Source: an uncultured Rickettsiales bacterium
Lineage (GTDB): Bacteria; Pseudomonadota; Alphaproteobacteria; Rickettsiales; JABCZZ01
DNA length: 59,242 nucleotides
Assembly (NCBI GenBank): GCA_964454545.1
Contig: CAYVTI010000010.1
Span: 1-59,242 of the forward strand
Reading direction: 5' to 3'
Under the pieces are notes generated by a model that had not been told where the DNA came from, did no database searches, and was given only the letters and a program-made list of their open reading frames with translations. The position numbers and the translations under genes were made by a program. Below, piece after piece: positions 20,561 to 52,167 of this stretch. Within the stretch, counting starts at the first letter, position 1. Each line of letters begins with the position of its first letter.

Positions 20561-22138
20561 ATGCCAAATCCCGCTGAAACGCGCCGCACATTCGCTATCA
20601 TTTCCCACCCGGACGCCGGTAAAACGACGCTGACCGAAAAGCTGCTCCTGTTCGGGGGCGCGATCCATCTTGCCGGTGCGGTAAAAGCCCGCGGCGCAGC
20701 AAGGCACGCCCGCTCCGACTGGATGGCAATTGAACAGCAGCGCGGCATATCGGTAACCGCCTCGGTCATGACTTTTCAATATGATGGCTGCACAGTGAAC
20801 TTGCTGGACACGCCGGGACATAAGGACTTTTCTGAGGACACCTACCGCACGCTCACTGCTGTAGACTCTGCCGTGATGGTGCTCGATGCCGCCAAGGGTA
20901 TTGAATCGCAGACCCACAAGCTGTTCGAGGTCTGCCGCCTGCGTGACACGCCCATCATCACCTTCATCAATAAGATGGACCGCGAAGCGCAGGAACCTTT
21001 CACGCTGCTTGATGAAATCGAGAAAACCCTCGCGCTCGACGTAACGCCCGTCACCTGGCCCATCGGCATGGGCAAAACCTTCAAAGGCTCTTTTGATCTG
21101 CTGAATGACACGCTGCATATATTCGACGCGGGCAGCGGCGAGAGTATTGCTGAGAGCCTGGAATGCAAAGGCATCAACGATCCCAAGCTTGATGAAATTA
21201 TCCCCGCAGCAGAACTCAGCAAGTTCCGCGAGGAAGTGGAGATGATTCGCGCTGCCTGCAAGCCGTTTGACCGCGAGGCCTATCTCGAAGGCCACCTGAC
21301 TCCGATTTTCTTCGGCAGCGCACTGCATAATTTCGGCGTGCGCGAACTGCTTAATGCCATCTGCAGTATGGCTCCCTCCCCACGCCCGCAAAAGACCGAT
21401 ACGCGTGACGTGCTGCCGGAAGAAAAGAATTTCTCCGGCTTTGTGTTCAAAGTGCAGGCCAACATGGACAAAAACCACCGCGACCGTATCGCCTTCGTGC
21501 GTATCTGTTCTGGCCGCTATAGTCGCGGGATGAAAGTGGAACATGTGCGCACGGAAAAGACCCTGACGCTCAACAATCCGGTATTGTTCCTTGCGCGTGA
21601 ACGTGAACTGGCGGAAGAAGCCTTCCCGGGCGATATTCTCGGTATTCCCAATCACGGCGGGCTTTCCATCGGCGACGCGCTCACCGAAGGCGAGAAGCTG
21701 CATTTCACCGGCATCCCGAGCTTCGCGCCGGAGCTGTTCAAGCGGGCGCGGCTAGATGACCCCATGCGCTCCAAGCAGCTGAAAAAAGCGCTGGAGGAAT
21801 TGTCACAGGAAGGCGCATCGCAGATATTCAAACCGCTCAACGGCAGCAACTGGATTATCGGCGTGGTCGGCGCGCTCCAGTTTGATGTGATCGCCTCACG
21901 CCTTGAAAGCGAATACAAAGTGAAGGGAAGCTTTGAAGAAGTGAGCTACACCACCGCGCGCTGGATAAAATGCGATAACTCCGCAACGCTTAAGCTGTTT
22001 ACCGAAAAGAACCTGCACAGCCTTGCTGAAGACGGCGCAGGCCAGCTGGCCTACCTCGCCCCCAACGACTGGCACCTGGGGCGTATCCAGGAAGACTGGA
22101 AGGATGTGAAGTTCGGCAAGACGAGAGAGAATAGGTAA
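20561..22138 (+). CDS. prfC: Peptide chain release factor 3
   Basis: RRTFAIISHPDAGKTTLTEKLLLFGGAI..AG.VK........SDWM.IE..RGIS and DTPGH.DFSEDTYR are RF3 GTPase motifs. Confidence 0.95.
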   Translation: MPNPAETRRTFAIISHPDAGKTTLTEKLLLFGGAIHLAGAVKARGAARHARSDWMAIEQQRGISVTASVMTFQYDGCTVNLLDTPGHKDFSEDTYRTLTAVDSAVMVLDAAKGIESQTHKLFEVCRLRDTPIITFINKMDREAQEPFTLLDEIEKTLALDVTPVTWPIGMGKTFKGSFDLLNDTLHIFDAGSGESIAESLECKGINDPKLDEIIPAAELSKFREEVEMIRAACKPFDREAYLEGHLTPIFFGSALHNFGVRELLNAICSMAPSPRPQKTDTRDVLPEEKNFSGFVFKVQANMDKNHRDRIAFVRICSGRYSRGMKVEHVRTEKTLTLNNPVLFLARERELAEEAFPGDILGIPNHGGLSIGDALTEGEKLHFTGIPSFAPELFKRARLDDPMRSKQLKKALEELSQEGASQIFKPLNGSNWIIGVVGALQFDVIASRLESEYKVKGSFEEVSYTTARWIKCDNSATLKLFTEKNLHSLAEDGAGQLAYLAPNDWHLGRIQEDWKDVKFGKTRENR

Positions 22139-25164: not shown

Positions 25165-25226
25165 TTACCTGCCATTGTCATTGCTGTATAGGTTAAATAA
25201 TTTATACAATCAGGCAGTAAAACAAA

Positions 25227-25679
25227 TTACTGGAAGCCTTCCGTGCCGGGCGTCTGTCCCCTTCCGGCGTTGACTAAACTGCGCCAGTAATTTGAAGATC
25301 TGCCATCTACCGGGCCATCGGGCCTTGACTGCAGTTCCGTCAGATAGGCATTTTCCCGCCGCAGTTGCCTTATTTCCTGATCCTGTGCGGACATCTGTGG
25401 ATCTTTCATCCCAAACAGTTTCTTGACATTGTTTTTGATAGGCTTCCAGAAAATAACGACTCCCGCCACCGTGGCGAGAACAGGAAACTTTTCCATCATC
25501 CAGTGTCCCGCATTTATCGTCCTGCTGGTCTGCCTTGCCGCAGTATCGGCAATTTTTCCAACGACTCCACCCGTGTTCTTGCCTACGCCACCAAAGCCTT
25601 TTAAGACTTCCATCGCGGTATTGGGAACCCTGGCAATCGACTCCCACAATGCCTCAAATCCGGTTTGATTACGCGCCAT
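25227..25679 (-). CDS. Hypothetical membrane protein P4 (Gly-rich N-region, one TM, coiled-coil tail)
   Basis: 150 aa. Contains GFGGVGKNTGGVVGKIADTA, a TM-like segment FPVLATVAGVVIFW and the heptad-like DQEIRQLRRENAYLTELQ. AGGAAGG lies 9 nt upstream of the ATG, inside the end of P3, and the gap to P3 is 6 nt. Confidence 0.6.
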   Translation of the reverse strand: MARNQTGFEALWESIARVPNTAMEVLKGFGGVGKNTGGVVGKIADTAARQTSRTINAGHWMMEKFPVLATVAGVVIFWKPIKNNVKKLFGMKDPQMSAQDQEIRQLRRENAYLTELQSRPDGPVDGRSSNYWRSLVNAGRGQTPGTEGFQ

Positions 25680-25685
25680 TTTAAG

Positions 25686-26180
25686 CTACCTTCCTGCCTC
25701 AACAGCAACTGATGCGGCTTTTTCATTCATATATCTGGTTGTAAATTCCCTTACAGGTTCTTTACCCGCCGCCTGATTTTCCACGACCTGCTCGACATTA
25801 TCCACCTGCCGCTGAAGACCGTTTACCGCCTTTTGTGATTCTACCGTATGATTCAGTTGAACAGCCGCATGTTCCATTTCCCTGTAAGCGCTACTTGAAG
25901 CCATGCGCGATCCGATCTTGCCGCCAATCCATCCTGCGATCAAACCAGTGGCCGCAATCACCGCGCCCACCCCCCAATGCGCTACAGTAAAAGCGGCACC
26001 AAGGCCTGCCACCCCCAACAGCCCCGCGGGAGCAGCCGCAATTAACGCCGCTACGCCTGCTACCGCCACCGCGCCAATGACAAAACCGGCAACGCCACCC
26101 CAGAAGCTGTTCCGTGCGTATTTCTGCTGGGCTTCCACCACATTCTGCTGTGCATTCTTAATTGCTTCACTCATTTCCAT
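25686..26180 (-). CDS. Hypothetical membrane protein P3 (about 65-residue Gly/Ala hydrophobic core flanked by Q/E-rich helices)
   Basis: 164 aa. The core is FWGGVAGFVIGAVAVAGVAALIAAAPAGLLGVAGLGAAFTVAHWGVGAVIAATGLIAGWIGGKIG. Same strand as P2, 30 nt downstream. No obvious Shine-Dalgarno sequence. Confidence 0.55.
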   Translation of the reverse strand: MEMSEAIKNAQQNVVEAQQKYARNSFWGGVAGFVIGAVAVAGVAALIAAAPAGLLGVAGLGAAFTVAHWGVGAVIAATGLIAGWIGGKIGSRMASSSAYREMEHAAVQLNHTVESQKAVNGLQRQVDNVEQVVENQAAGKEPVREFTTRYMNEKAASVAVEAGR

Positions 26181-26210
26181 ATACCGCGTATGTCATTTTT
26201 GCGGAGCGTT

Positions 26211-26663
26211 TCACACCTGCCTGTTAGCGCTGATATTTCTCAATCTTTCCTGCTCTACCGCTTCTGCGTAAGACTTCCTGACCCCTGCATCATTTCCGTA
26301 ATCCGCCCCCCGGTTGATGAGCGACTGGCGCTGGGCAAGCAAAGCTTCCCTTGTCTGTTCATATTGTTGCTGTTGTTCCAGCGCGCTTCTTTCCGTGCCT
26401 CTCCTGGCTTCCTTCGCCGCACGCCATGTTCCCCCTATGAAGGAAAAGAGCGGAGCGGCAAACATGAAGCCAAAAATTCCTCCCCCGATAATACCAGCTG
26501 CACATAATCCGGCCGCCAGCAACCCGCCGCCAAGCAATAACCCCGCAACAAGCCCGCCAATACCGGCAACGGCTGCACAGCCACCAATTGCCAGTGCCGC
26601 TCCTTTCAGAGCCCCTATAAAGCCGCCGGATACTGTTTTTACCGCTGTTTCACCTGCACTCAT
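26211..26663 (-). CDS. Hypothetical membrane protein P2 (about 65-residue Gly-zipper hydrophobic core, Q/R-rich helical tail)
   Basis: 150 aa. The core is GGFIGALKGAALAIGGCAAVAGIGGLVAGLLLGGGLLAAGLCAAGIIGGGIFGFMFAAPLFSFIGG, and the tail contains EQQQQYEQTREALLAQRQSL. GGAAGGA lies about 8 nt upstream of the ATG. The plus-strand alternatives are Pro/Ala-rich shadow frames. Confidence 0.6.
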   Translation of the reverse strand: MSAGETAVKTVSGGFIGALKGAALAIGGCAAVAGIGGLVAGLLLGGGLLAAGLCAAGIIGGGIFGFMFAAPLFSFIGGTWRAAKEARRGTERSALEQQQQYEQTREALLAQRQSLINRGADYGNDAGVRKSYAEAVEQERLRNISANRQV

Positions 26664-26771
26664 TATCGCGTTCCTTCCAAAAGGATAACACTCTCACTTT
26701 TAATTTATTCTACCACTTTATTGCTGCGTAACAAATGAACCTTTTATGACAAATTCTCTTAAGCCCTTGTA

Positions 26772-28661
26772 TTACCTGGGTGTAGTTTTGGCGGCCCCTC
26801 CTGCCAATTCCTGAACACTCTCTTTCTGTTCAGGCGTAGGAACAGTTATGCTGCGCACCACGTCCTGCGCATTTACTTGCTTATTGGCCACTCCTATTTC
26901 TATCTTGTCCATCTGTGGTATCATTTTTTCCAGGTGGTTTATCTTTTCTCTCAATACCCCAACTTCTTCTTTTAATGCGGCTATTTCAGGAGAAACGTTC
27001 TGAGGATTGGAGGACGCAGGCGAGGTAACGGAAATAGCTTGCACGGGTGCAGATATGGTTGTGTTCGCGGCATGTGAATCGGACGATGGCTGGTCTGCAA
27101 CCGGCGTCTTGGTCTCTTCGAGAGAAGCGCTCTTTCCGCCTGAGCGCGACAGGACAGCGGCCTGTTCCGCCTGCGGGTGTTTCCGATCGTATTCCTCCTG
27201 TGCATATCCCACCTGGGCGGCGGTCAACCCCTTGCCGACTATGGACCATTGCGGCACATCGCATCCTTCCAGCGTGATCTGGATAACCTCAACATTAGTA
27301 ATCCCCTGCTCTTCAAGAGCGCGCTTGTAACCTTCCATTTCTCGTTTCTGCTGGGCAAGCGCGGTTTCGCTGCTAGCAAAATCCGGAGCGATTACAGCCT
27401 TCCTGCCCGCCAGTTCTTTCAATGACTCCTCTGAAATATTCACATAGGCATTATCCTGCGGCGGAGAGAAATATTTTTCTATGAGCGCCCCCCTTTCCAC
27501 TCCCAGGGCCTGCTCGATCTCTGCCAGCACTTTTTTCTTCTTTTCATCGTCCATGCCAAAATAATATTCATGGCCTGCGGCTGCAGCGCTGCCAAGTCTC
27601 TCGGCCATGCCCGACTTATCTTTGGACTTGGAATCCTTCTCACCGTCTTTTTCCTTATCCTTGCCTTTACCCTGCTCTTTTGCATCCACCTCTATTCCGC
27701 GCGCCTTAAGCCCGTCTATGATGCCAGACCGGATAGCAATTTTATTAGCGGCAATTTCCTTATCCTTGCGCCCGATACCAATGGAGGCAAGTCCGTTCCC
27801 AACCGTCGCGCCTATAAGGCCGCTTATGCCGCCTACAGATCCCGCACCCCACAAAATTCCCTTGCCGATATAATTTTTATGTTTATGGGCTCTTATCGCC
27901 TCAACGCTTTCTTCTATCTGCAGCGGGCTCTCGGCATAACCCATCAGCCTGCGGTTCGCCATGACCGCTTCCCTGTCCGTACCGTCGATAGCGTTTCCTA
28001 TCGTTCTGGCAAGACCTACTACAAAGCCTCCTGCGCCGCCGATGATGGCCAAGGGAATAGCTGTTATTAAACCCACTCCGGTCCCGGTCACCTGCGCTGC
28101 TTTTCTTGCTCTCTGTCCAATCCTTTCACCCGCAGTCATATGGTCGGAGAAAATTTCCTCCACGATCTTGTCTACGTCCTTACCGCTTATTTTTTTGCCG
28201 TCTTCAATATCGTTCAGCGCCCCGGCAACGCGGCCATAGTTATAATATTCCGTCAGCTTATCAATATTGCCCTTTGTCGGCTGATAACCGGTATTTTCTA
28301 TGGATCTCAGCATTGCGGCAGAAAGCGGTTCTTCCTTATTCCACAGAATCAGCCCGTCAAGCGTGCTGACCGTTTTTCCCTCGGCTATCTGCTGCTCTAC
28401 CCTGTCCCTTGCCGCGATGGTGACACGTTCGAGAAGCTTTCTGCTGCTTTCGTCCAGCCCCTCTTCCATAAAATTTTTCTTCTCGGCTTCTATGGCTTCC
28501 GGCGAGTATCCCGCTGCGATCTTAGCGCCGAGGTCAGTAGCCTTATTATACATTTCCGCCGTAATGGCATCCAGGTTCGCATAAGCGGGAGTGCCCGGCT
28601 GCGCTATCTGTGCCTTCAATGCCTGTATGTCATTGCGCGACAATATCCGATCTATAGACAT
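26772..28661 (-). CDS. Hypothetical large protein P1 (helical N-domain, two Gly-zipper segments, KD-rich linker, C-terminal coiled coil)
   Basis: 629 aa. GAGGA lies 5 nt upstream of the ATG. Hydrophobic segments are VTGTGVGLITAIPLAIIGGAGGFVVGLARTIG and GILWGAGSVGGISGLIGATVGNGLASIGIG. The low-complexity linker is KEQGKGKDKEKDGEKDSKSKDK, and the coiled coil is EIAALKEEVGVLREKINHLEKM. No catalytic motif recognised. Confidence 0.65.
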   Translation of the reverse strand: MSIDRILSRNDIQALKAQIAQPGTPAYANLDAITAEMYNKATDLGAKIAAGYSPEAIEAEKKNFMEEGLDESSRKLLERVTIAARDRVEQQIAEGKTVSTLDGLILWNKEEPLSAAMLRSIENTGYQPTKGNIDKLTEYYNYGRVAGALNDIEDGKKISGKDVDKIVEEIFSDHMTAGERIGQRARKAAQVTGTGVGLITAIPLAIIGGAGGFVVGLARTIGNAIDGTDREAVMANRRLMGYAESPLQIEESVEAIRAHKHKNYIGKGILWGAGSVGGISGLIGATVGNGLASIGIGRKDKEIAANKIAIRSGIIDGLKARGIEVDAKEQGKGKDKEKDGEKDSKSKDKSGMAERLGSAAAAGHEYYFGMDDEKKKKVLAEIEQALGVERGALIEKYFSPPQDNAYVNISEESLKELAGRKAVIAPDFASSETALAQQKREMEGYKRALEEQGITNVEVIQITLEGCDVPQWSIVGKGLTAAQVGYAQEEYDRKHPQAEQAAVLSRSGGKSASLEETKTPVADQPSSDSHAANTTISAPVQAISVTSPASSNPQNVSPEIAALKEEVGVLREKINHLEKMIPQMDKIEIGVANKQVNAQDVVRSITVPTPEQKESVQELAGGAAKTTPR

Positions 28662-28846
28662 AACTTCCTCTTTCTACTGAACAATATCCATCTGCGGACA
28701 TGGCTATACTGTTCTACTATTATCCTAGCATCATACTATATTTTCCAAGCGTGAAGAACAAGTTAACATCTTATGACAGTTTGGTTACAAATTTATGACA
28801 TGTGCCGATAATGCAATGAGGCGTAAGAAATATCCGGATTGGCAAC

Positions 28847-28911: not shown

Positions 28912-29304
28912 TTAGTTGGCAGAATCAGGACGCGCTCTGTGTTCACGGAGTTTGTGATCCCGGCGTTCCTGCCTTCTCTTTTCGAATTTCTCTTTCCTCA
29001 TTTCATGATTCAGCCTGCGCTGTTCGGCTTTGGTAATGTGGCCGCCATGCTTCGCTTCATCGCGGTTCAACTGGCTCTGGGTGCGCTGATCGCGCCTTTC
29101 ATCACGTTCGGCCTGTCCTTCGGTAAGTTTACCGTTTTTCTCAGCACGCTCGGTATTGTTTTCCTGATGCTCAAGGCGGTTTTCCACCTGGTTGATGCGC
29201 GGATGGCCCGGATCTTCTGATTGTTCTTGCGCAATGACCGGAGATGAGAGTATGGTGCCTGCAGTCAGTGAAAGTATGACTGTGCTTAAGAAGCAAATTT
29301 TCAT
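28912..29304 (-). CDS. Hypothetical exported, highly charged protein
   Basis: Signal peptide MKICFLSTVILSLTAGTILSSPVIA, then an R/E/Q/K-rich mature part with a two-fold pattern (GKLTEGQAERDERR... / GGHITKAEQRRLNHE...). AGGGA lies 6 nt upstream of the ATG, and the gene has its own terminator. Confidence 0.6.
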   Translation of the reverse strand: MKICFLSTVILSLTAGTILSSPVIAQEQSEDPGHPRINQVENRLEHQENNTERAEKNGKLTEGQAERDERRDQRTQSQLNRDEAKHGGHITKAEQRRLNHEMRKEKFEKRRQERRDHKLREHRARPDSAN

Positions 29305-35322: not shown

Positions 35323-35443
35323 AGTCAGGCAATTAAATTATCTCCTCTCATTCCTGCACAAGAAAAATGTAATAGAATTGTCATCAAAAAACAGATATTT
35401 GATGCTATACTGGATTTTATTTTTCTGAAAAAGTTCATGAAGC

Positions 35444-36799
35444 ATGAATTCGTCTGAGCAAACATCTACTTCCTCTGCTTCCGAAGCGGTGACACAACCG
35501 GATGCGGTGCTAACGCCCGCTGTGTCGTCTGCCGCAATAACAACATCTTCACAGCAGGATAAAACCAGTCCTGAGGACAAAGAGTTGAAACCTTTTGCCA
35601 AAAGCGAATCCAAATCCCTAGGATTTACGGGTAGAGTCAAGGATATGTTTTCGGGTAAGAAACTTATAAGCACCGTAATGGCGCTGGGATTTATTTTTAC
35701 CTGGTCGGAGCGCATGCTGACTTCTTTCAACACCGGATTCTCCTCCTACCGTGATATTCCTAAAATGATAAGAGATAAAAATCTTGACCCCTTAAAGGAT
35801 GCAGGAAAAACGGTTGCAGGTCTGGTTACTCCCGGATCGGATAATAACTTCCTCAGCAAATTCTCAACAGGTGAAAAACTTCAGGCCATGGGATCCACCC
35901 TGGGTCTTGCGCAGAATGTCTGGTTTTTTACTTCTTCACGTTCGGGTTATATCCCGGACGGCGACACCATGCTGGAAAGACTTAAGGAGATACTTAAGAA
36001 TCCGTCGCGCCATGTCGCCCAAATAACTACCTTGTGGCAGGCAGTGTCAGTGGGTAGCATTGGGTTCGGACGCCTTATGTCAGGCTATCGCGATCTCTCC
36101 CGGAACGCAGACGGAAAGTGGATTGGATTTAATCCCAGGCAGGCTCTAAGCGGCAAGGATAACTTCACAAAGCTGGATAAGCTGACCCCTCTTATTACGG
36201 GAGCCGCTGTCATATCAAGCGTACCGATAGTCGTATACAGCATGCTGAATATGAAAAAACCCAATGCAAGCAGCAACAGCCACCTGCAACACATGGAAGA
36301 GGATAAAACCTTATCCGCGGAGGATACCGAAGGCAACGTAGTAACTCCTGTTGAGGACAGACAACAAACAGAAATTAAACCGTTTGCCAGAAGCCAAAGC
36401 AAAATATTATCTTCCGATAAGGAAAATGGGTTAAAAGCAATGGTTGCCATGTTCTCTCCTAGTAACCTGAAAGCTATGACACAATATGCAGTAACTAAGG
36501 ATCCACTTGGATTTACAGCACGTACATTGCTTCTTGGAATGGATGTAGGCTTTTTTGGCGTAGGCCTTGCAAAACTGGGGCAGATCAAGTCCGGGCAATA
36601 TCCGCATAAATACGGCGAAGCAAACAGCCCGCAGTGGAATAAAGCGCTTGCCAACGCAAAACAGTCGCGCAATGTAGGTATATTGGGCTTTGTTCTGACC
36701 GCGCTTTATAATATGTATGTATATGATACTCTGGCGCAGGCTTACAAAAAGGAGCAGGAGAAACTAAAGGAGGAATCCGATGGCAAAGTGGCAAGATAA
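35444..36799 (+). CDS. Hypothetical multi-pass membrane protein with an internal duplication
   Basis: 451 aa. Ser/Thr/acidic linkers are each followed by E(L/I)KPFA(K/R)S(E/Q)SK (aa about 47 and about 309). Roughly six hydrophobic segments. No strong Shine-Dalgarno sequence and no known motif. Confidence 0.5.
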   Translation: MNSSEQTSTSSASEAVTQPDAVLTPAVSSAAITTSSQQDKTSPEDKELKPFAKSESKSLGFTGRVKDMFSGKKLISTVMALGFIFTWSERMLTSFNTGFSSYRDIPKMIRDKNLDPLKDAGKTVAGLVTPGSDNNFLSKFSTGEKLQAMGSTLGLAQNVWFFTSSRSGYIPDGDTMLERLKEILKNPSRHVAQITTLWQAVSVGSIGFGRLMSGYRDLSRNADGKWIGFNPRQALSGKDNFTKLDKLTPLITGAAVISSVPIVVYSMLNMKKPNASSNSHLQHMEEDKTLSAEDTEGNVVTPVEDRQQTEIKPFARSQSKILSSDKENGLKAMVAMFSPSNLKAMTQYAVTKDPLGFTARTLLLGMDVGFFGVGLAKLGQIKSGQYPHKYGEANSPQWNKALANAKQSRNVGILGFVLTALYNMYVYDTLAQAYKKEQEKLKEESDGKVAR

Positions 36800-37157
36800 G
36801 GTTTCTCCTTCACCGAAAGCGTCTGGCGCCATCTTTTCTCCGGGAGATGAGCTGCCTGCCGTTATTGCGCTGGTAACGGGGGAAGATGCAGAAGGCAACC
36901 CGCAATGGGCATACGCGAAAATCTCCGCGCAAAACTATGCGCTGTTCAAGGCGGCAGAAGAACAGGGAAACTATAGTCTGGCTGACTTCGGGGAAATACT
37001 GCAATATGGGCACGGCAAGGAACCGCCAGAGGCGATCAAACACGAAATGAAAGAACAATACGGTTGCGATGAGCATTTTGAGGAATCACTCGCCGAGATG
37101 ATGGAAAAGGCCATCACGGAATGGGATGAAGCGCTGCAAGATGAAGATAAACGCTAG
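36780..37157 (+). CDS. Hypothetical small acidic protein
   Basis: 125 aa. A strong Shine-Dalgarno sequence (AAGGAGGAA) lies 4 nt upstream of the ATG. The start overlaps the end of the upstream ORF by 20 nt. D/E-rich with no hydrophobic segment. Confidence 0.55.
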   Translation: MAKWQDKVSPSPKASGAIFSPGDELPAVIALVTGEDAEGNPQWAYAKISAQNYALFKAAEEQGNYSLADFGEILQYGHGKEPPEAIKHEMKEQYGCDEHFEESLAEMMEKAITEWDEALQDEDKR

Positions 37158-38293: not shown

Positions 38294-38383
38294 GGAGAGG
38301 TGGCAGAGTGGTCGAATGCGGCGGTCTCGAAAACCGTTATAGCCGCAAGGCTATCGAAGGTTCGAATCCTTTCCTCTCCGCCA
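38294..38383 (+). tRNA. tRNA-Ser (anticodon CGA)
   Basis: Hand-folded. Acceptor stem GGAGAGG/CCTCTCC plus G-CCA, anticodon stem GCGGT/ACCGT with loop CTCGAAA, a long variable arm TAGCC-GCAA-GGCTA and T-loop GGTTCGAATCC. Confidence 0.95.
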
Positions 38384-38518: not shown

Positions 38519-39196
38519 ATGCGTATCCTGCTGGTTGAAGATGAGAAAAAGCTTGCAGATATCGTCGCAAGAGGCTTGAAGGCAGAAGGGTTTTCCATCG
38601 ATATTGCCACAAATGGCGCTCAGGGGCTGGATCTGGCGACATCTTACGATTACGATATGATTGTGCTTGATATCATGCTCCCCAGCCTGAGCGGGACGGA
38701 AATACTGGGAAAGGTCAGGCAGAAGAACCGTCACGTTCCCATACTGATGCTTACGGCTAAGGATGCCGTGGCAGATAAAGTGAAGCATATGGATGCGGGA
38801 GCGGATGACTACCTCACCAAGCCCTTCGCTTTTTCTGAGTTGCTGGTGCGCATACGCGCCCTGCTGCGACGCGCGCCGGTGCAGCGTAATGATGTGTTTA
38901 ACATTCTGGATCTGGAGATTGATCGCCTTGGCAGGCAGGTGAAGCGGGCGGGAAAGCGGATTGAATTAAGCGCCAAGGAATATGCCCTGCTTGAGTATAT
39001 GATGCTGAATGCCGGCCGCGTATTGTCGCGCAATATGATTATCGAACATGTATGGGATCAGAGTTTTGAAGGCCTTACCAATATCGTTGACGTCTATATC
39101 CGCCAGTTGCGCGCCAAGGTGGACGAAGGACATGCCGTAAAGCTGATAAAAACCGTCCGCAGCGTCGGTTATATGCTTAACGATGAAGCCAGATGA
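38519..39196 (+). CDS. OmpR-family response regulator (CusR/CopR-like)
   Basis: MRILLVEDE.KL......L...G......NG..GL.......YD.IVLDIMLP...G and a C-terminal winged-helix domain (LS.KEYALLEY......V.SR..I...VW). Confidence 0.9.
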   Translation: MRILLVEDEKKLADIVARGLKAEGFSIDIATNGAQGLDLATSYDYDMIVLDIMLPSLSGTEILGKVRQKNRHVPILMLTAKDAVADKVKHMDAGADDYLTKPFAFSELLVRIRALLRRAPVQRNDVFNILDLEIDRLGRQVKRAGKRIELSAKEYALLEYMMLNAGRVLSRNMIIEHVWDQSFEGLTNIVDVYIRQLRAKVDEGHAVKLIKTVRSVGYMLNDEAR

Positions 39197-40596
39197 ACAC
39201 GCGTTCCATATATTTTCGCCTGATATTATGGTATAGTGGCCTTGTCGTAGCTGTTTTCGCTGCGTTCGGAGCTTATACGTATAAAGGCGTGGAAAGCCGC
39301 CTTTACGGCGAAATGGAGCAGACTTTTAAGCGCCGTGCGCACCAGATAGCTGATAATATACTCGTGCATGCGCATGAAAAAACTCCTGAAGATATTGCAG
39401 AACAGATACGCGCTGTTTACTCGCCGTCAGCGAGCAGCCGCTTTATCCGTATTCTGAGAAACGATCGCACGGTTTACTATATTTCTTTGCCCCCAAAAGA
39501 CGGCGTGTTCAATCCCTTCGCCATTCCGTTACCCACCCATATGTGGGCAGAAACAAGAACAGTAAAGCTTAGTTCCCACAACGCTATATATATGGTTTCC
39601 GTTCCCGTTACAGCGGGCGGTGAGGTATTTCTCATAGAAATGGGCGCACCGGTCAGTGAATTGGAGACCGTATTGCATGGCCTCATGGTTATTCTGCTTC
39701 TTGGCGTTCCCGCTGCTGTTCTCATTGTATCTGCGGGAGGATATATGCTGGTGCGGCGTTCCCTGAAACCCGTGGAAGATATGCGCTCAACCGCCGAACA
39801 GATCACCTTCGGCAATTTGAGTAACCGCCTTCCCGCCGCCGCAACAGGGGACGAGCTGGAATATCTCTCAATTACGCTCAACCAGATGCTTGCCCGCCTG
39901 GATGATTCCTACCAGCAGGCAAGCCGTTTCTCCGCCGACGCCTCCCATGAACTGCGCACGCCTCTCAGTATCATGCGCGGCGAGCTGGAATCCCTCATCC
40001 AGCGGGAAGCGGGCCTGTCCGAGCCGCTGCGCGAGCGTATAGGCAGCGTGCTGGAGGAAACGGAACGCCTGTCGCATATCGTCGAAAGCCTGTTTGCCAT
40101 TTCACGGCTGGATGCCGGGGAAGGTAGGACCGAACCGGTTACTTTTTATCTGGCGGATATGGTCGATACCACGAAAGACCAGATGCTCCTGATGGCAGAA
40201 GAAAAAAATATCAAGGTCATGGTTGAGAAGACGCATAACGTAAGAATCAAAGGCAACGCGGCGCGACTCAAGCAGGTAGTGGTCAACATCCTTGACAACG
40301 CCATAAAATATACGCCTGAAGACGGCACCATTTCCATCAGGATATACAGCACCCATCATAAAGCAATACTGGAAATCAAAGACAATGGCATTGGTATCCC
40401 GGCGGACGCATTACCTCATGTATTCGAGCGTTTTTACCGCGCCGACAAAGTACGCTCACGCGAGCAGGGCGGCGCCGGGCTTGGGCTTGCCATCGTGCGC
40501 TCCATCTGCCAGGCGCATGGAGGAGCGGTGGAGATAGAAAGCACGGAGAACCAGGGCACCACCTGCCGCGTAGAACTGCCGCTGGCAAATGACTGA
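39193..40596 (+). CDS. Sensor histidine kinase (heavy-metal CusS-like architecture)
   Basis: 467 aa. Two TM segments, HAMP, the H-box FSADASHELRTPLS and N/G boxes (NILDNAIKYT, DNGIGI, GGAGLGLAIV). Overlaps the regulator gene by 4 nt. Confidence 0.88.
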   Translation: MNTRSIYFRLILWYSGLVVAVFAAFGAYTYKGVESRLYGEMEQTFKRRAHQIADNILVHAHEKTPEDIAEQIRAVYSPSASSRFIRILRNDRTVYYISLPPKDGVFNPFAIPLPTHMWAETRTVKLSSHNAIYMVSVPVTAGGEVFLIEMGAPVSELETVLHGLMVILLLGVPAAVLIVSAGGYMLVRRSLKPVEDMRSTAEQITFGNLSNRLPAAATGDELEYLSITLNQMLARLDDSYQQASRFSADASHELRTPLSIMRGELESLIQREAGLSEPLRERIGSVLEETERLSHIVESLFAISRLDAGEGRTEPVTFYLADMVDTTKDQMLLMAEEKNIKVMVEKTHNVRIKGNAARLKQVVVNILDNAIKYTPEDGTISIRIYSTHHKAILEIKDNGIGIPADALPHVFERFYRADKVRSREQGGAGLGLAIVRSICQAHGGAVEIESTENQGTTCRVELPLAND

Positions 40597-40601
40597 AAGA
40601 A

Positions 40602-42107
40602 TTATTGGCCGCTACGATCAGATTCCACGGAACGCCTCAGAGCAGCGATCACCGCCGGAAGTGGCTGGCGGATAGGTGGAAGCTGCTGATACTCTTCCCA
40701 GCCGCCGCCCAATGCCTTATAAAGCGCGACAAAGCTTTCCGCCGCTGTCTGCTGTGCAGCGACATACTGCCGCTCCAGATCAAATTCCTGCCGCTCAGCG
40801 TCGATGACATTAAGCGCGTCTGTCAATCCCCGGTCATAACGCTGCGAGGCGAGGTTCACGGCTTTCTGGCTTGCTTCCAACGCCTTGTTCAGATTTTTCA
40901 GGCGGTCCTGCTGGGCGGAATACTCACTCGCCGCCCTATCCACCTCTTCCACTGCATTGAGTATAGTCTGCCGGTAGTTCATCAGCAGGGCATGGGTATG
41001 CAGATCGGCTATATTTACGATGGCATCAAGCGTGCCGAAATCAAGCAGCGGCCAGCTGATGGAAGGCCCAAACGACCATAGGAAATTTTGATGGGTTGGA
41101 TTTATTCCAACCCCCTGCGCCTGGTATCCCGCTCCCCCTGTCAGCGCGAAATGGGGAAACAGATCGGCAGTCGCAACGCCTATGCGTGCCGTGGCAGCAG
41201 CAAGCTGGCGCTCCGCCTCATGAATGTCGGGACGGCGGCGAAGCAGATCAAGCGGCAAGCCGGTCTGGAGCGCCTGCGGCAGTTGTGGAATCTGCCCCGG
41301 CTTGGAAAACTCGCCTGCCATATTTTCCGGGAACTCCCCGCATAAGACAGCGATGGCATATTGCGCCGCCGCTACTTTAGACGTCAGCGGCGCGCGTTGT
41401 GCCTCCAGTGCTGAAAGCTCGCGCTGCGCAATACGCAGATCCAGCTCATTGGTAATGCCGCGGTTATAACGCTCCTGCACGAAATAGACATATCGTTCCG
41501 CCGCATGGATGTCATGCTCCAGTACCGCCTGCTGCATCTCTAATCCTCGCATGTCCACATACGATCTGACGATATCGGCGACGATGGTAATCAGCACATT
41601 ATTGCGTGCAGCCCTGACAGCCTGTTCATCATAACGCGCCGCTTCCGCTTCGCGGCGATACTTACCGAATAGGTCAAGTTCCCATCCTGCGTCAAAACCA
41701 TAAATCTGGCTTACATGGGTGAACCCGCTGGCATTTTCTCCTGAAACAAGTGGTTGCGACGCCCGGCCACGCGCAAGATCACTGCCCGTTCCGTTTCCTC
41801 CCCCGGCACTTGCTTCCGCCTCCGGCAATGCGGCACCTAAGATCACCGCTTCCTGCTGGCGCGCCTCCTGCACATGGGTAAGCGCAATGTCCAGCTGCGG
41901 ATTGGACTTGACAGCCTTGTCAATCAGGCCATTGAGCGTATCGTCACCCAACGATTTCCACCACTTTGCGGCATCAACAGCGGATGCTGGTGCGCCTTTA
42001 ACTTTATCCTTAGAAGCTTCGAAGCTTTCCGGCAATTTCACATCAGGAATATGGTAATTCGGGCCGACCTCACAGCCAGCCAGGAAAAAGCAACAAAGAA
42101 TTGTCAT
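40602..42107 (-). CDS. RND efflux outer-membrane factor lipoprotein (NodT family)
   Basis: Lipobox MTILCCFFLAGC at the ATG 42105-42107. Duplicated OEP repeats and typical motifs (LL.RRPDI..AE..L.AA.A.IGVA.A..FP). The ORF-track extension to 42329 is unlikely. Confidence 0.88.
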   Translation of the reverse strand: MTILCCFFLAGCEVGPNYHIPDVKLPESFEASKDKVKGAPASAVDAAKWWKSLGDDTLNGLIDKAVKSNPQLDIALTHVQEARQQEAVILGAALPEAEASAGGGNGTGSDLARGRASQPLVSGENASGFTHVSQIYGFDAGWELDLFGKYRREAEAARYDEQAVRAARNNVLITIVADIVRSYVDMRGLEMQQAVLEHDIHAAERYVYFVQERYNRGITNELDLRIAQRELSALEAQRAPLTSKVAAAQYAIAVLCGEFPENMAGEFSKPGQIPQLPQALQTGLPLDLLRRRPDIHEAERQLAAATARIGVATADLFPHFALTGGAGYQAQGVGINPTHQNFLWSFGPSISWPLLDFGTLDAIVNIADLHTHALLMNYRQTILNAVEEVDRAASEYSAQQDRLKNLNKALEASQKAVNLASQRYDRGLTDALNVIDAERQEFDLERQYVAAQQTAAESFVALYKALGGGWEEYQQLPPIRQPLPAVIAALRRSVESDRSGQ

Positions 42108-42219
42108 GCCAGAAACCCGTTTTCCCCAATTCCGCAGGAATTGGTTGGAAAACGGTGTTATCTGGCATCCAGTCTTGCTTGCTGTTTCTGGATGCCGGCG
42201 TTCGCTGGCATGACAAGTC

Positions 42220-43431
42220 TCATTTGTCATGGGGTTCATTGTCCTCACTGACTTCCACTTTTTCCCCTTCGGTAATTTGATTGCTGATGTTAAGCGCCAC
42301 CTGATCACCCACCGCAATACCGGAACCAATTTCCACCGTGTTGCCGTTGTCGCGGACGATGGCCACCTTGCGGAAATGCACGATTCCCTCCTTCACCACG
42401 GCAACTTCAGGCCCCTGAGAACGGAATAAAAGCACTGCCGCAGGCACTTCTGCCTGGCCTTTGGAAGGAAGGTCAAAGCGCACATCGACATACATGCCGG
42501 GAACCAGCACCCGATCGGGATTAGGCATGTCTACTTCCACCTTGAGCGTGCGCGCCTGCGGATCAATGGCGTCTGCCGTACGGGCAATTTTCCCTTCAAA
42601 GAGGCGCTCTCCCGTTGCGCTTGCGCTGATGCGGGCGGTGACACCGGGTTTCATATCCTCCGCTATCCTCTGGGGAGCATCCACGAAGATACGCATCGGA
42701 TCGCTCTGCGCCATGCGGTAAAGCAAAGTGGTATTCGCCGAGCTTCCTGCGGTCACCAGATTTCCGATATCCACGCGCCGCTCGGTGATCTTGCCATCAT
42801 AGGGCGCAACCACTTGCTTGAACCCCGCAAGTATCGTGTAACGGTCTACATCTGCCTTATCCAATCCGGCCTGCGCCTTGGCCTGGTTCAGCTGGGCCAC
42901 CGCGCTTTCATAGCCTGCTTTCTTGGCTTCGCGCTCCTGCTCGGAAACTACGCCTTTGGGAGAATCGCGCCAACGCTCATAGGTCGTCTTTGCAAAATCC
43001 GCATCCGCCTGCCGCGCCTTCACCAGTGCTTCATCCGCCTGAAGTTTTGCTTTTGCGGCGGCAAGCTGTGCATCCAGATCCGGCGTTTCGAGCGTGGCAA
43101 GCACCTGCCCTTTTTTCACGCTGTCGCCGATATCCGCCGTCCAGTTGCCGACATAGCCGTCTACCCGCGCATAGATAGTGCTTTCATACCAGGCCGCAGT
43201 TGCTCCCGGAAGCACAAGATAGGCCGATGCCGGGACTTTGGATACGGTAATGACTTTGACCAGCGGCGGTGCGGACGCTGCCTCATCAGCCGCATTCTTC
43301 AACCGATGCGCATGGATGGATTTCATGCAGAATACGATGACAAATCCCGCCGCCAGGATGATGACGACCCTCCGGGCAAATTTACGGATCTTTTTTTCCA
43401 TCTCATGCATAGCGGGCTCATGTTGCGGCAT
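42220..43431 (-). CDS. RND efflux periplasmic adaptor (membrane fusion protein)
   Basis: N-terminal TM anchor, a coiled-coil hairpin (LDAQLAAAKAKLQADEALV...) and beta-barrel motifs (V.APYDG.I..R.VD.GNLV). The start at 43431 overlaps the RND stop; 43410 or 43401 are possible alternatives. Confidence 0.85.
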   Translation of the reverse strand: MPQHEPAMHEMEKKIRKFARRVVIILAAGFVIVFCMKSIHAHRLKNAADEAASAPPLVKVITVSKVPASAYLVLPGATAAWYESTIYARVDGYVGNWTADIGDSVKKGQVLATLETPDLDAQLAAAKAKLQADEALVKARQADADFAKTTYERWRDSPKGVVSEQEREAKKAGYESAVAQLNQAKAQAGLDKADVDRYTILAGFKQVVAPYDGKITERRVDIGNLVTAGSSANTTLLYRMAQSDPMRIFVDAPQRIAEDMKPGVTARISASATGERLFEGKIARTADAIDPQARTLKVEVDMPNPDRVLVPGMYVDVRFDLPSKGQAEVPAAVLLFRSQGPEVAVVKEGIVHFRKVAIVRDNGNTVEIGSGIAVGDQVALNISNQITEGEKVEVSEDNEPHDK

Positions 43432-46400
43432 GATGGGCACTCCTGTGTCTAAATTCTTCCGTGTCTCGCGACTTGTGCGGCAACAACCCATACATGACGG
43501 GAACGAAGACAAGCGTGGCGAATGTGGCAAACGTCAGGCCACCGATGACCGCGCGCGCAAGCGGCGCGTTCTGCTCCCCGCCTTCACCGATGCCGAGCGC
43601 CATCGGGATCATGCCGAGAATCATCGCCCCCGCTGTCATCAGCACTGGCCTGAGACGCGTATAGCCTGCCACCTCGGCGGCAAGCCAGGAATCGTCGCCC
43701 GCATTCATGCGCTGGTTGGCAAATGTCACCACCAGGATGCTGTTGGCGGTAGTAAGGCCGATGCACATGATGGTGCCCATGAGCGCTGGCACGGACAGAT
43801 GCGTCTGGGTAAGGTACAGCATCCACATGACGCCGCCGAGCGCGAACGGCACGGCAAACAGTACGATTAGCGGATCAATCCAGTTCTGGAAATTAATGAC
43901 CAGAAACAGGTAAATCAGCACGACCGCGAATGCCATGCCGGAAAACAGCCCGCTATAGCTGGCGCGCATCGTTTCTACCTGGCCGCTCAGGGTGATGGCT
44001 ATGGCCTTGGAGGGATCAGGGCGATCCTTTTTCAATACCTGGTCTATGTCGGCAGCGACGGAATTGAGGTCCCGCCCCTGTACATCGGCATCCACGTCAA
44101 AAACAGGCCGGATATTATACTGGGACATCACCATAGGCACGGTGGCGCGGTTAAACCGGGCGACATTCATCAGCATCTGATTCTTTGCCTTATCATTATC
44201 GGAGGCTACCGGCAACGACCACAGGTCATGCGTAGAGTTGATACGATAGGCGGGCAACTGCACCACCAGCGGATAACTGACATTGTTACGCGGATCGATC
44301 CAGAAGTTGGGCATGGTCTGGGCGCTGGAGTTGGTGGTTACAAGGACATTATTTGCCACGGTCTGCTGATTAAGTCCCAATTGATTTGCCATCGTGCGAT
44401 CAATATCAACGGTCAATGCGGGAGCATCCGGCAGCTGGAATACGTGTGAGTCTACGATACCTGCCACCTGCTTCAGATCGTTTGCCAGTGTGACGGCGAG
44501 CGCATAGGCTTCTTCACTGTTAGGGCCGGATATGCGTATGTCAACCGGCGCGGGCTGACCGAAATTGAGCACCTGATCGACAATGTCGGCAGGCTGGAAG
44601 AAGAATTCCATGTTGGCGAAACGCTTCGGCAGTTCTTTCCGCAGCCTGGCCATCAGATCCGCGGTAGGCATATGCTTTTCCTTGAGCGAGATCAGAATCT
44701 CACCGTCCATCGGGCCAATGGTCGCCGAGTCGCTCAGCGCAATATTGATGCCGCTGTACGGCAAGCCTATGTTGTCGAGGATAACGTCAATCTGATTGGT
44801 ACCTATGATATGGCGGATTGCGGCTTCTACTTCGGCAAAATCCTGCTGCGTCTCTTCCAGCCTCGTGCCGGCAGGCGCGCGCACATGCAGACGCATCTGC
44901 CCGGCATCCACCTGCGGGAAGAAGTCCCTGCCAAGCGCAGGGAACAGCAGGAGGGAAACCACCATAAGCCCGGCAAAGAACAGTATCACCTGTTTCGGCT
45001 GCGACAGAGCCCAATGCAGGCTATAGTGATATGTTTTACGGAAGGACTGGAAGCTCCGTTCAAAACGATGGTGAATCCGGGCGAAAAGATTGGGCCGCCG
45101 CTCAGGTGTGACCGCCTTTTCATGCGCCGATACGGAAGAACGCATCAGGTATTTGAAAAGCACTGGCACAAGCGTGAACGACAGCCCGAGGCTTGCCACG
45201 AGAGAAACGCAGACAGAAAGGGAAAGCGGCGAAAAAAGATACTTGGCGGTTCCCTCCAACAGAAAGATGGGAACAAACACGATGCAGATGCAGAAGGTCG
45301 AAAGCATAGTGGGTATGCCGACTTCGCCCGCTCCTTCAACGATTGCATATTCAAGCGGTTCACCGCCATGCAGGCGCCGCTCGATGTTTTCAATCACCAC
45401 TGTGCCGTTATCCACCAGAATGCCCACTGCGAGCGCAAAGCCGCCAAGCGTCATGGTATTAAGCGTCTGCCCGCCACAATACATCACCAGTACCGCCGAG
45501 ATGATGGATAATGGGATAGAAGCAAGGATGATAAGCGTGAGCCGCCAGTTGCCCAGGAACAGTAGGATCATCAGCGCCGTGAGCCCCGCCGCCATCGCGC
45601 CGCCCATTACCACACTGTTAAGTGCCGCCTTGACAAATACCGACTGATCGAAAATCGCCTTGATAGAAACACCGCCAGGCAACGCTTTCTGAATATCGAG
45701 CAACGCATCGCGGACCCCGGCAATAACCGCCAGCGTTGAAACACCGCCTGTCTTGCGGATGGTCATCAGCGCGCCCGGTGTGCCATTGACCGCCACGGAA
45801 TTGGTCTGCACCTGAAATCCGTCATGCACATGCGCCACATCGCGCATGAATACCGTTTTCCCGTTTATCTCCTTAATGGGAAAGGCATTAATTGCGTCAA
45901 TCAAATCGGGGCTGTTGTTCATCGACAACGTATAATCCCTAGAACCGATCTTCACATCGCCTGCAGGCAGGATGACGTTCTGGCGCTGCAGCGCCGTGCT
46001 GACATCGGAGGAGGAAAGCCCGCGTGCCTGCAACGCCTGCTGGTTGAGATCAGCCATGATGACACGCGGCTTCCCGCCGTAAGGATAAGGCACTTCGGCA
46101 CCATGCACCACCGCCAGATCCGGTCGGATAATATTCTGCCCCAGATCATTGAGTTTGGTATCGGGCAGCGAAGAACTGGAAAGGCTCAGCTGGATAATGG
46201 GAACGTCGGTTGCGCCGTAGCGCAGCACCAGGGGAGGCGTGATACCGGGAGGCATGTATTTGAGCACCACCAATGCGCTGCTTGCGAGCTGCGAAATGGC
46301 ACGGGTGACATCCGCTCCTTCATGCAGGTAGACTTTCTCAACGCCAACGCCGTTATAGCTCGTAGCTTCAATATGCGCGATATCGTCCACCAGCGAGGCC

Positions 46401-46612
46401 ATCTGGCGCTCGTGCAGGGTAAGGATGCGGTTCTGGATATCCTGGGCGTTCATGCCGTTATAGGTCCAGACCACGCTCACCACCGGAATGTCAATTTCCG
46501 GAAATATGTCCACCGGCATGCGCAGCCCCGCCCCAATACCAAGGATACTCACCAGTATCAGCACGGCGATGACAGTGTAAGGATGCTTCAATACGTAATG
46601 AACAAAAGGCAT
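43418..46612 (-). CDS. RND efflux transporter permease (AcrB/CzcA superfamily)
   Basis: 1064 aa, 12-TM architecture with two large periplasmic loops. The N-terminus is [36 protein letters not shown]. Confidence 0.93.
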
Positions 46613-51578: not shown

Positions 51579-52167
51579 AGCGGTGGTCATAGGCGTTTCC
51601 ACCGGCGGGATGCATGCGCTTAAAACCATCATCCCTGCGCTTCCCGCATCCTTTCCGGTTCCTGTGGTGGCCGTACAGCATATCGGCGAACGCTCGGATA
51701 TGTTCCTGGCCAAATATCTGGCGAGCCTGAGCAGGATAAAAGTAAAAGAGGCGGAAGATAAGGAATCCCTTCAGCCAGGATACGTATATCTGGCGCCGCC
51801 GGGTTACCACCTGCTTATCGAACCGGACAGGATCTTCAGTCTTTCTGTTGATCCGCGCGTAAATTATTCCTGCCCTTCCATAGACGTATTGTTTGAAAGC
51901 GCCGCGGATGCATTTGGAGAAAAACTGGCCGGCGTTATCCTGACCGGAGCCAATTCAGATGGCGCGCAGGGACTGAGAAAGATCAAGACAAGCGGCGGGA
52001 TAGCGATTGTGCAGGATCCTGAATCGGCAGAAGCTTCCTACATGCCTGAATCGGCGCTCAATGCAACTCCCGCTGATTATGTCGTTATCCTGGAACAGAT
52101 AGCTCCCCTGCTGTCAAAGCTTGTGTCACCTTTTGATGAGAAAATCCATGCAGACAACCGCAGCTGA
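51571..52167 (+). CDS. cheB: CheB-type protein-glutamate methylesterase, catalytic domain only (no receiver domain)
   Basis: 198 aa. VVIGVSTGG (nucleophile Ser), VVAVQH (His) and PSIDVLFESAA (Asp region). Overlaps cheR by 8 nt. Confidence 0.85.
   Translation: MIEAVVIGVSTGGMHALKTIIPALPASFPVPVVAVQHIGERSDMFLAKYLASLSRIKVKEAEDKESLQPGYVYLAPPGYHLLIEPDRIFSLSVDPRVNYSCPSIDVLFESAADAFGEKLAGVILTGANSDGAQGLRKIKTSGGIAIVQDPESAEASYMPESALNATPADYVVILEQIAPLLSKLVSPFDEKIHADNRS

Follow-up and report, generated by a model that had tools for sequence, protein, structure and literature searches.

The stretch of DNA considered here (hereafter the window) comprises 59,242 nucleotides (nt) of contig CAYVTI010000010.1 from an uncultured Rickettsiales bacterium. 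The subject of this study is a set of four genes on its minus strand, named P1 to P4, together with the conserved DNA repeats that precede P1 and P2 and resemble the binding sites of the response regulator PhoB. The four open reading frames (ORFs) and the terminator upstream of them are as follows.

26772-28661, minus strand, P1, 629 amino acids (aa)
26211-26663, minus strand, P2, 150 aa
25686-26180, minus strand, P3, 164 aa
25227-25679, minus strand, P4, 150 aa
28853-28888, minus strand, intrinsic terminator with a 16-bp stem and a T-run, predicted to end the transcript of the upstream gene P0 and to insulate the P1 promoter

The genes are separated by 108 nt (P1-P2), 30 nt (P2-P3) and 6 nt (P3-P4). 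These gaps, lengths and coordinates are those of the ORF list and had been given correctly in an earlier reading of the DNA, referred to below as the original prediction, as had the Shine-Dalgarno sequences at three of the four starts: AGAGGAAG for P1, GGAAGGAA for P2 and AGGAAGG for P4, none being evident ahead of the P3 start. The region upstream of P1 (28662-28846) is AT-rich, with 37% GC against 52% for the window, and both this composition and the strong terminator beyond it had likewise been recognized. The GC content of P1 to P4 themselves is the same as that of the window.

Judged by their conservation, P1 to P4 are genuine genes, which recur in five other metagenome contigs (ERZ27237430 k141_999325, SRR33086943_167420, Ga0207022_10157, ERR14789960_409152 and Ga0181522_10064932). 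The loci on these contigs are named L001 (ENA), L013 (Logan), L003 (JGI), L004 (Logan) and L012 (JGI), and their gene orders are given below.

L001: ligA, recN, (glycosyltransferase), phaB, phaA, then P0, P1, P2, P3, P4, then cdh, gshA
L013: ligA, recN, phaB, phaA, then P0, P1, P2, P3, P4, then cdh, gshA
L003: tmk, then P1, P2, P3, P4, then gshA; without P0 and without phaAB
L004: apparent plsC, then P1, P2, P4; without P3
L012: plsC, then the start of P1 only (fragment)

The upstream gene of L004 was equated with the plsC of L012 by sequence resemblance and not by a family search. The order P1-P2-P3-P4 is kept in L001, L013 and L003; P2 is present in all five loci, the window included, that reach its position, and P4 orthologues occur in L001, L013, L003 and L004. 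Co-occurrence of the genes in related genomes had been proposed as a check, and both the reading frames and the gene order proved to be kept in the relatives. When 1.84 billion representative proteins were searched exhaustively with a HMMER profile of P1, five P1-family proteins were obtained, the window's own included. A word-index search retrieved one relative with P1 and only the query itself with P4, a profile search with P2 gained L013 as an extra locus, and a metagenome scan returned L003 again and the fragment L012, with nothing further. Scanning of the GTDB representative genomes for P1 gave no close relative with the patterns tried, and a RecN scan of genome contigs matched only unrelated Firmicutes and Bacteroidales. 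The best plasmid and chromid matches of the window's PhaA all come from Alphaproteobacteria, at 66-68% identity; these matches and the NDUFS4-type gene beside the set suggest an alphaproteobacterial origin. On the evidence of these loci, the set is restricted to one lineage of uncultured alphaproteobacteria and is carried by every member seen so far, and its rarity in databases is due mostly to the rare sampling of that lineage.

Amino-acid identity to the window's copies is 26-46% for P1, 26-44% for P2, 24-30% for P3 and 29-48% for P4, and 60-62% for the neighbouring P0; the flanking PhaA, PhaB, RecN and LigA are 70-85% identical to the copies of the relatives. For P1, P2 and P4, the proportion of nonsynonymous differences (pN) lies at 0.22-0.56 and that of synonymous differences (pS) at about 0.62-0.83, which is saturated. 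P3, compared between the window and its relatives, is the weakest case (pN 0.48-0.51, pS 0.66-0.72). As pN remains below the saturated pS, the four frames are under purifying selection. Conservation in the relatives rules out the explanation that they are chance ORFs, to which practically no probability is attached.

P1 comprises an N-terminal helical domain (residues ~1-175) and an alpha/beta domain (~410-495), the latter followed by a helical tail that is variable. Between the two domains lie a conserved hydrophobic glycine-zipper segment (PLAIIGGAGGFVVG, ~188-222), a second Gly-rich segment (~264-297) and a K/D/E-rich linker; within the second segment, a weaker hydrophobic stretch is seen at 269-297 with the 19-residue hydropathy setting. 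The strict motif GxxxGxxxG (GGAGGxxVG) is found in all five P1 orthologues, at an identical position. The absence of a signal peptide, the basic N-side flank and the mid-helix Pro of the zipper segment together suggest that the large domains of P1 are cytoplasmic. In its AlphaFold2 (AF2) model, the mean predicted local distance difference test score (pLDDT) is 49.9, and only the N- and C-terminal domains reach ~60-86. This model matched no structure in the PDB at E<1 with Foldseek, and the alpha/beta domain resembles ferredoxin/PII-like folds only at E ~1.2.

P2 carries GGxxGxxKG in its N-terminal part, continues with a Gly/Ala-rich hydrophobic region of 55-70 residues (13-80 in the window copy with the 19-residue setting) and ends in a positively charged, Q/E/R-rich helical tail. 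The middle of the hydrophobic region carries a Pro in four of the five orthologues and GGG in the window copy, and each of two GxxxGxxxG motifs is conserved in four of the five copies. Modelled with AF2 at low confidence (pLDDT 50.8), P2 has a helix at 16-42, a turn, and a helix at 50-119 that runs into the tail. P3, the most divergent member, has a basic N-terminus, a hydrophobic region of 52-63 residues (24-91 with the 19-residue setting) with a Kyte-Doolittle peak of 2.5-2.7 and a central Pro in all copies, and a helical E/Q/K-rich tail. In P4, a Gly-rich N-terminal region precedes a hydrophobic helix of ~20 residues (62-81) between prolines (FPVLATVAGVVIFWKP), after which come a basic stretch and then a tail of polar residues. 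The GxxxGxxxG motif is patchy in P3 and P4. In P2 and P3 the hydrophobic region is flanked by basic residues at both ends, which suggests that the tails are cytoplasmic, and the features and the P2 model fit in-in hairpins with cytoplasmic helical tails. The two proteins align with each other in hhalign at a probability of 75%, in the hydrophobic region only, and the idea that they are paralogues was dropped. P2 and P4 were also compared with P1, and neither is related to it.

These features agree in large part with the original prediction, which had described membrane-type proteins with glycine zippers; the motif is conserved in the orthologues of P1 and P2, and the hydrophobic peptide quoted as an example corresponds to residues 13-66 of P2. 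The long Gly/Ala-rich hydrophobic stretches attributed to all four proteins are borne out by hydropathy for P1, P2 and P3 but not for P4, where the stretch is of ~20 residues only.

None of the proteins could be assigned to a family, as had been stated before. Neither the window proteins nor any of the 22 proteins of the orthologue set reached a curated threshold in Pfam, NCBIfam, PADLOC or PHROGs. Below threshold, P3 of L003 matched positions 683-776 of the SidF model (E=3.6e-5, 22.5 bits against a cut-off of 27.1), P2 of L003 matched positions 12-99 of the 113 of Pfam Oleosin (E=0.019, 15.2 against 25 bits; one of five P2 orthologues), and P2 of L004 matched the SctB2 translocon family (E=0.024). 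P3 also matched Holin-X (Phage_holin_3_6) at E=0.011 (16.3 against 28.4 bits), P2 and P3 matched positions 424-555 of the 601 of the Eleos protein LeoBC (17.1 and 16.6 bits, E 6e-4 to 8e-4), and P4 matched a PHROG tape-measure family (E=0.032) and a holin family (E=0.16). Among PDB sequence profiles, P2 found the TolQ hairpin (E=0.029) and P3 an MIT-like tail (E=0.23), with nothing for P1 or P4; the P2 profile further gave the alpha-pore-forming toxins Nhe L1 and MakA at E ~0.06-0.09. These sub-threshold matches all fall on hydrophobic hairpins of other proteins and indicate a long helical hairpin, not homology. No Gly-zipper or Mic10 family was among the Pfam matches of the window proteins (scanned at E<=1) or of all 22 proteins (scanned at E<=0.05), the HMMER filters dropping most matches above ~0.1, and no Gly-zipper, bacteriocin or toxin family appeared even at E=0.1. 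A tblastn search of P1 against 50,697 phage records was empty, as were protein and DNA pattern scans of IMG/VR and a search of a plasmid collection. Two candidates were rejected: the dynamin-like defence protein LeoBC, of which only the region 424-555 was matched and no GTPase domain, and a likeness to E. coli yqjCDEK, for which DUF883, YqjK and DUF1090 gave no matches. As far as these comparisons of sequence reach, P1 to P4 belong to no family tested and have only a general build in common with hairpin-anchored and glycine-zipper proteins.

The DNA upstream of P1 and in the P1-P2 gap contains two putative promoters, each preceded by a candidate operator. Their elements are listed below.

28735-28800, minus strand, P1 operator and promoter, with conserved sequence reaching 28712 in the six-locus alignment
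28790-28800, minus strand, P1 unit 1, TGTCATAAATT
28779-28789, minus strand, P1 unit 2, TGTAACCAAAC
28768-28778, minus strand, P1 unit 3, TGTCATAAGAT
28757-28767, minus strand, invariant GTTAACTTGTT after the P1 units
28735-28740, minus strand, candidate P1 -10 hexamer TATAGT (alternative: -35 TTGTTC, 17 nt, TAGTAT)
26731-26752, minus strand, P2 operator TTGTCATAAAAGGTTCATTTGT, in the P1-P2 gap
26707-26715, minus strand, candidate P2 extended -10, TGGTAGAAT

The P1 operator consists of three phased 11-bp TGTCAT direct repeats, followed by the invariant 11-mer, by CTTCAC and, 10 nt on, by the -10 hexamer, which reads TATAGT, TATAAT or GATAAT according to the locus. Across the six loci, 56 of the 89 columns of the block upstream of P1 (28712-28800) are invariant, including an unbroken run of 22 nt (TGTCATAAGATGTTAACTTGTT, 28757-28778). 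In these same loci the proteins are 26-65% identical and the coding DNA 42-66% identical. Given that silent sites are saturated, the invariance of this block is explicable only by selection on the DNA itself. In the P1-P2 gap, the element TTGTCAYAAAAGGTTCATTTGT and a subsequent extended -10 of the form TGnTAnAAT are conserved in five loci. Of the two units of this operator, the first is strong and the second weaker, and a promoter scan of the gap flagged TTGTTA-16-TAGAAT with TG. In every locus examined, the strict operator pattern is found only at the P1 and P2 promoters. The set, which had been predicted to form a single four-gene operon, is therefore best described as two probable transcription units under one type of operator, P1 alone and P2-(P3)-P4, a second conserved promoter being present before P2. 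P3 is absent from L004, and P0 accompanies the set in three loci. Read-through from P1 into P2 is possible, since no terminator follows P1.

The PHO-box-type character of these operators, overlooked in the original prediction, is the most informative feature of the locus. The PHO box is defined as 11-nt direct repeats, each made up of the 7-nt core CTGTCAT plus four A/T-rich bases that are less conserved (PMC4415409), and this definition is valid in rhizobia too (PMC3131613). The repeats of the present lineage, (T/C)TGTCAT followed by an A/T-rich 4-mer and 11 nt in length, agree with it at both P1 and P2. A scoring matrix was built from 23 units of this lineage only and was tested on E. coli PhoB sites mapped by chromatin immunoprecipitation sequencing (PMC10294691). 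The pstS site scored 29.0 bits, above every position of the window, and phoB (22.1 bits), yoaI (18.6), phoA (18.4) and phoH (17.8) gave scores that are each reached or exceeded by only ~2.5e-5 of window positions.

When ~113 kb were scanned with the matrix, four more tandem boxes were found, all of them intergenic and co-oriented with an orphan gene that begins 56-79 nt downstream; dinucleotide shuffles of the window gave 0.23 box matches per 59 kb.

Window 35367-35388, plus strand, tandem box ATGTAATAGAATTGTCATCAAA with a score of 27 bits, 56 nt ahead of the ORF at 35444-36799 (451 aa)
L001 16962-16983, tandem box before a 198-aa orphan ORF
L013 17248-17280, minus strand, tandem box before a 341-aa orphan ORF
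L003 12235-12256, tandem box before a truncated orphan ORF

The boxes of L001, L013 and L003 lie 74-79 nt upstream of their orphans, which show no mutual similarity; those of L001 and L013 stand in a variable gap between a glutathione S-transferase gene and a GGDEF response-regulator gene. In the window, the 451-aa orphan is Ser/Thr-rich and is followed by an overlapping orphan of 125 aa (36780-37157). Neither has a Pfam or NCBIfam match, and both probably belong to the same regulon as P1 to P4. The boxed genes as a whole look like a small regulon.

A PHO-box-type operator indicates control by a two-component response regulator. It is very probable, on these matches, that a regulator of the OmpR/PhoB family binds the P1 and P2 operators, and there is about an even chance that this regulator is PhoB itself. 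Other regulators were considered and rejected. The ChvI box TTGC-N3-GCAA (PMC9731502) is absent, and on inspection of the sequence the GTTAAC near the P1 promoter lacks the upstream half-site of a CtrA box. A CopR/CusR-like two-component system encoded in the window has no TGTCAT repeats in its own promoter or in that of the associated efflux genes, and it is unlinked to the set elsewhere.

Taken together, the observations are tentatively read as a PhoB-type switch that controls hairpin and glycine-zipper proteins of the bacterium's own inner membrane, which assemble to stabilize or reshape it. P1 to P4 would be off by default; a two-component signal, of which phosphate limitation is the likeliest, would switch them on when a response regulator of the OmpR/PhoB family, most likely PhoB, binds the phased TGTCAT repeats at both promoters; a few other orphan genes with the same box would be switched on together with them. 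P1 would then serve as a large scaffold held in the membrane by its glycine-zipper segment, and both its helical and its alpha/beta domains would be cytoplasmic. P2 and P3 would be small hairpins whose two long hydrophobic arms are arranged around a central turn and whose tails are cytoplasmic, and P4 would be a protein of the cytoplasmic membrane with a single hydrophobic helix. Packing between small-xxx-small faces could join the four proteins into an assembly embedded in the membrane, and this assembly would stabilize or reshape the membrane under the stress concerned.

Several points weigh against this reading. In the PhoB-controlled promoters of E. coli pstS, phoA and ugpB and of Sinorhizobium and Rhizobium, PHO boxes are tandem phased 11-nt repeats that lie upstream of the genes and are co-oriented with them, as at P1 and P2. 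Here, however, 21-22 nt lie between the end of the strong boxes and the -10 hexamer, against the 10 nt usual in E. coli. The promoter-proximal units GTTAAC and CTTCAC fill this interval in phase and stop at a distance of exactly 10 nt from TATAGT, but they are degenerate and do not score as PHO units (-12.6 bits). The window and the related loci examined contain no pst, pho or phn gene, and all the other boxed genes are orphans, unlike the members of the classical Pho regulon. Half-sites of other OmpR-family regulators are similar, one being the CusR site that PhoB binds in E. coli. The CenR half-site T(G/C)A-N8-T(G/C)A resembles these repeats as well (PMC9275681). The nonsynonymous divergence (dN) of P1 to P4 is 2-5 times that of the flanking housekeeping genes, which would be odd for a core structural complex, and the topology and the formation of a complex rest on hydropathy, charge and two AF2 models with pLDDT ~50. 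A wider interpretation, regarded as rather unlikely, is that in an uncultured alphaproteobacterial family a PhoB-like regulator has become the master switch of a private regulon consisting solely of fast-evolving orphans, in which P1 to P4, as its conserved core, form a new hairpin and zipper machine that either reshapes the cell's own membrane or coats storage inclusions, or is delivered into the membrane of a partner or host in the manner of Inc- or SidF-type anchors.

An effector function would also account for part of the evidence: P1 to P4 would be translocated proteins similar to Inc or SidF, inserted into a host or vacuole membrane, and the regulator of the TGTCAT repeats would be of a virulence type. 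All boxed genes are lineage-specific orphans without signal peptides that differ between genomes at syntenic spots, and P1 to P4 evolve much faster than housekeeping genes. Chlamydial Inc proteins, the C-terminal anchor of SidF, plant oleosins and Holin-X/YqjE resemble P2 and P3 in having a hydrophobic domain of ~50-70 residues with a central turn and soluble helical flanks; the bilobed hydrophobic domains of P2 (55-70 residues) and P3 (52-63) lie in the range of ~40-70 residues by which Inc proteins are recognized, and the matches of P3 of L003 to SidF and of P2 of L004 to SctB2 point the same way. PmrA regulons of Legionella and Coxiella offer a parallel in regulation, with an OmpR/PhoB-family regulator, tandem repeats just upstream of the -10 and many fast-evolving lineage-specific genes whose products are of unknown fold, several of them membrane-anchored; yet the PmrA repeats are of the TTAAT type and those here of the TGTCAT type, and neither Dot/Icm nor any other translocation system is seen in the loci examined. 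No gene of a type III, type IV or type VI secretion system (T3SS, T4SS, T6SS) occurs in the window or in ~60 kb of the related loci, ~125 kb of the lineage in all. The gene content suggests a free-living or facultative organism, with flagella, chemotaxis-type signalling, a TonB receptor, polyhydroxybutyrate (PHB) synthesis and resistance-nodulation-division (RND) efflux, and the high hydrophobic peak of P3 favours insertion into the bacterium's own membrane. Besides being below its cut-off, the SidF match covers a hydrophobic stretch, and such stretches can reach scores of this size through their composition alone. P2 and P3 lack the oleosin-type proline knot, a secretion signal and a chaperone context, and their likeness to hairpin anchors is explicable by composition. 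The Inc-like idea of the original prediction is thus left with architecture and sub-threshold hairpin matches, and an effector role is considered unlikely. Still less probable is a coat of storage granules or lipid bodies, in which P2 and P3 would act as oleosin-like hairpins, with P1 as a scaffold, on PHB or neutral-lipid inclusions under phosphate exhaustion. The set adjoins phaA-phaB in three of the five loci whose upstream side is visible, plsC lies upstream in L012 and apparently in L004, cdh lies downstream in L001 and L013, and the long hydrophobic regions (55-70 residues) with a central Pro in most copies, as well as the Oleosin match of P2 of L003, would suit such a coat. Carbon storage under phosphate limitation would fit control of the PHO type. 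The Oleosin score, however, is far below threshold and confined to one orthologue, phaAB does not adjoin the set in L003 or in L004 and L012, and no phasin, PhaC or PhaR is linked to it; adjacency to phaAB in three closely syntenic genomes may reflect inherited gene order only.

The original prediction had also compared the proteins with pore-forming bacteriocins and toxins. Cdz bacteriocins, Tse4, VacA and the Gly-zipper families of Pfam have the GxxxGxxxG motif in hydrophobic helices in common with P1 and P2, where it is conserved, and the fast sequence evolution and the weak matches of the P2 profile to the hairpins of Nhe L1 and MakA might suggest a toxin with an immunity partner. As the TolQ hairpin scores better in the same search, the toxin matches appear to reflect the composition of hairpins. 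P1 to P4 differ from these glycine-zipper proteins in being larger, with soluble domains of cytoplasmic type, and in lacking sequence matches, even at the relaxed limit given above, as well as secretion and immunity partners. A type I secretion system (T1SS; ABC transporter plus membrane-fusion protein) with an immunity gene, as in Cdz, is found neither in the window nor in the related loci, the only efflux set of the window being a CusA/AcrB-type RND system 12 kb off; nor do these loci contain a T6SS, VgrG, PAAR, Hcp or an immunity gene, as would go with Tse4. Every member seen has the set in a fixed order amid core genes, with vertical inheritance, and it is neither polymorphic nor island-borne; the soluble parts have no signal peptide and bear basic flanks of cytoplasmic type. 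A toxin is considered very unlikely. An origin as prophage remnant, with P1 as a tape-measure-like protein and the small proteins as holins, is the least probable of these explanations and is hardly credible. It could appeal to the Phage_holin_3_6 match of P3 and to the tape-measure and holin matches of P4, but these are all sub-threshold, neither the tblastn search of phage records nor the IMG/VR scans gave a match, the set has no integrase, tRNA or further phage gene beside it, and its context consists of core genes in six loci. Homology to a known complex, such as phage tape-measure or tail genes, had been named in advance as a finding that would overturn the prediction, and no confident match of this kind was obtained in Pfam, PHROGs or the phage searches. 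The toxin, Inc-like effector, granule-coat and phage explanations are all weaker than a PhoB-type switch acting on proteins of the inner membrane.

P1 to P4 are new protein families under putative response-regulator control, which is an already known kind of arrangement. The suggestion of the original prediction that the module might be of an undescribed kind finds no support, since no new mechanism is shown. If the reading as a PhoB-type switch is true, the promoter gives an experimental handle on four families from uncultured bacteria that no database names, and a Pho-type switch would drive a regulon without phosphate-scavenging genes among the members seen, which bears on the re-use of nutrient regulators in remodelling the envelope or interacting with a host. 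Should the box serve a different regulator, or should the proteins prove to be ordinary membrane fillers, the set would be a routine lineage-specific operon.

The neighbours of the set across the window and the related loci are topA, an NDUFS4-like gene, phaAB, recN, ligA, cdh, gshA, tmk and plsC. These core-gene surroundings had been correctly described, and so had the lack, within the window, of a partner gene for secretion, of phage origin or for an enzyme. Mobile genes are likewise missing from the vicinity of the set. The NDUFS4-type gene adjoins the set and converges on P4; the 62 nt between them (25165-25226) are AT-rich and contain no recognizable terminator hairpin for either gene. 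On the other side, the gene beyond the terminator had been taken for phaA but is a fifth gene of the same strand, P0.

28912-29304, minus strand, P0, ~130 aa from the ATG at 29304, with a signal peptide ahead of a helical region rich in E, R and Q

P0, a protein of secreted type whose body is highly charged, is 60-70% identical among the window, L001 and L013 and does not adjoin the set in L003, L004 or L012. It holds an LTEGQ motif (LTxxQ-like) and has its own terminator, and it matches no Pfam family, LTXXQ/CpxP included. P0 is a loosely associated neighbour, outside the core set. The divergent intergenic region between phaA and P0 (29305-29493) has several blocks conserved among the window, L001 and L013, and the inverted repeat GGTTATTGCTGTnGATAACC directly before the P0 start may be an operator or a hairpin of the 5' untranslated region.

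Other signalling genes and features of the window lie further from the set. The CopR/CusR-like response regulator and its histidine kinase are encoded at 38519-40596 and score just under the NCBIfam heavy-metal cut-offs; beside them, in divergent orientation, genes for an outer-membrane factor, a membrane-fusion protein and a CusA/AcrB-type pump form an RND efflux set, the whole cluster covering 38519-46612. A tRNA-Ser(CGA) gene is located at 38294-38383. A signalling cluster at 47674-53311 encodes a CHASE3 hybrid histidine kinase with three receiver domains, CheR, a CheB that consists of the methylesterase domain only, and a receiver-kinase fusion, without a receptor gene. Finally, a prfC (release factor 3) gene, which is uncommon in Alphaproteobacteria and may therefore be of use in placing the lineage, is located at 20561-22138.

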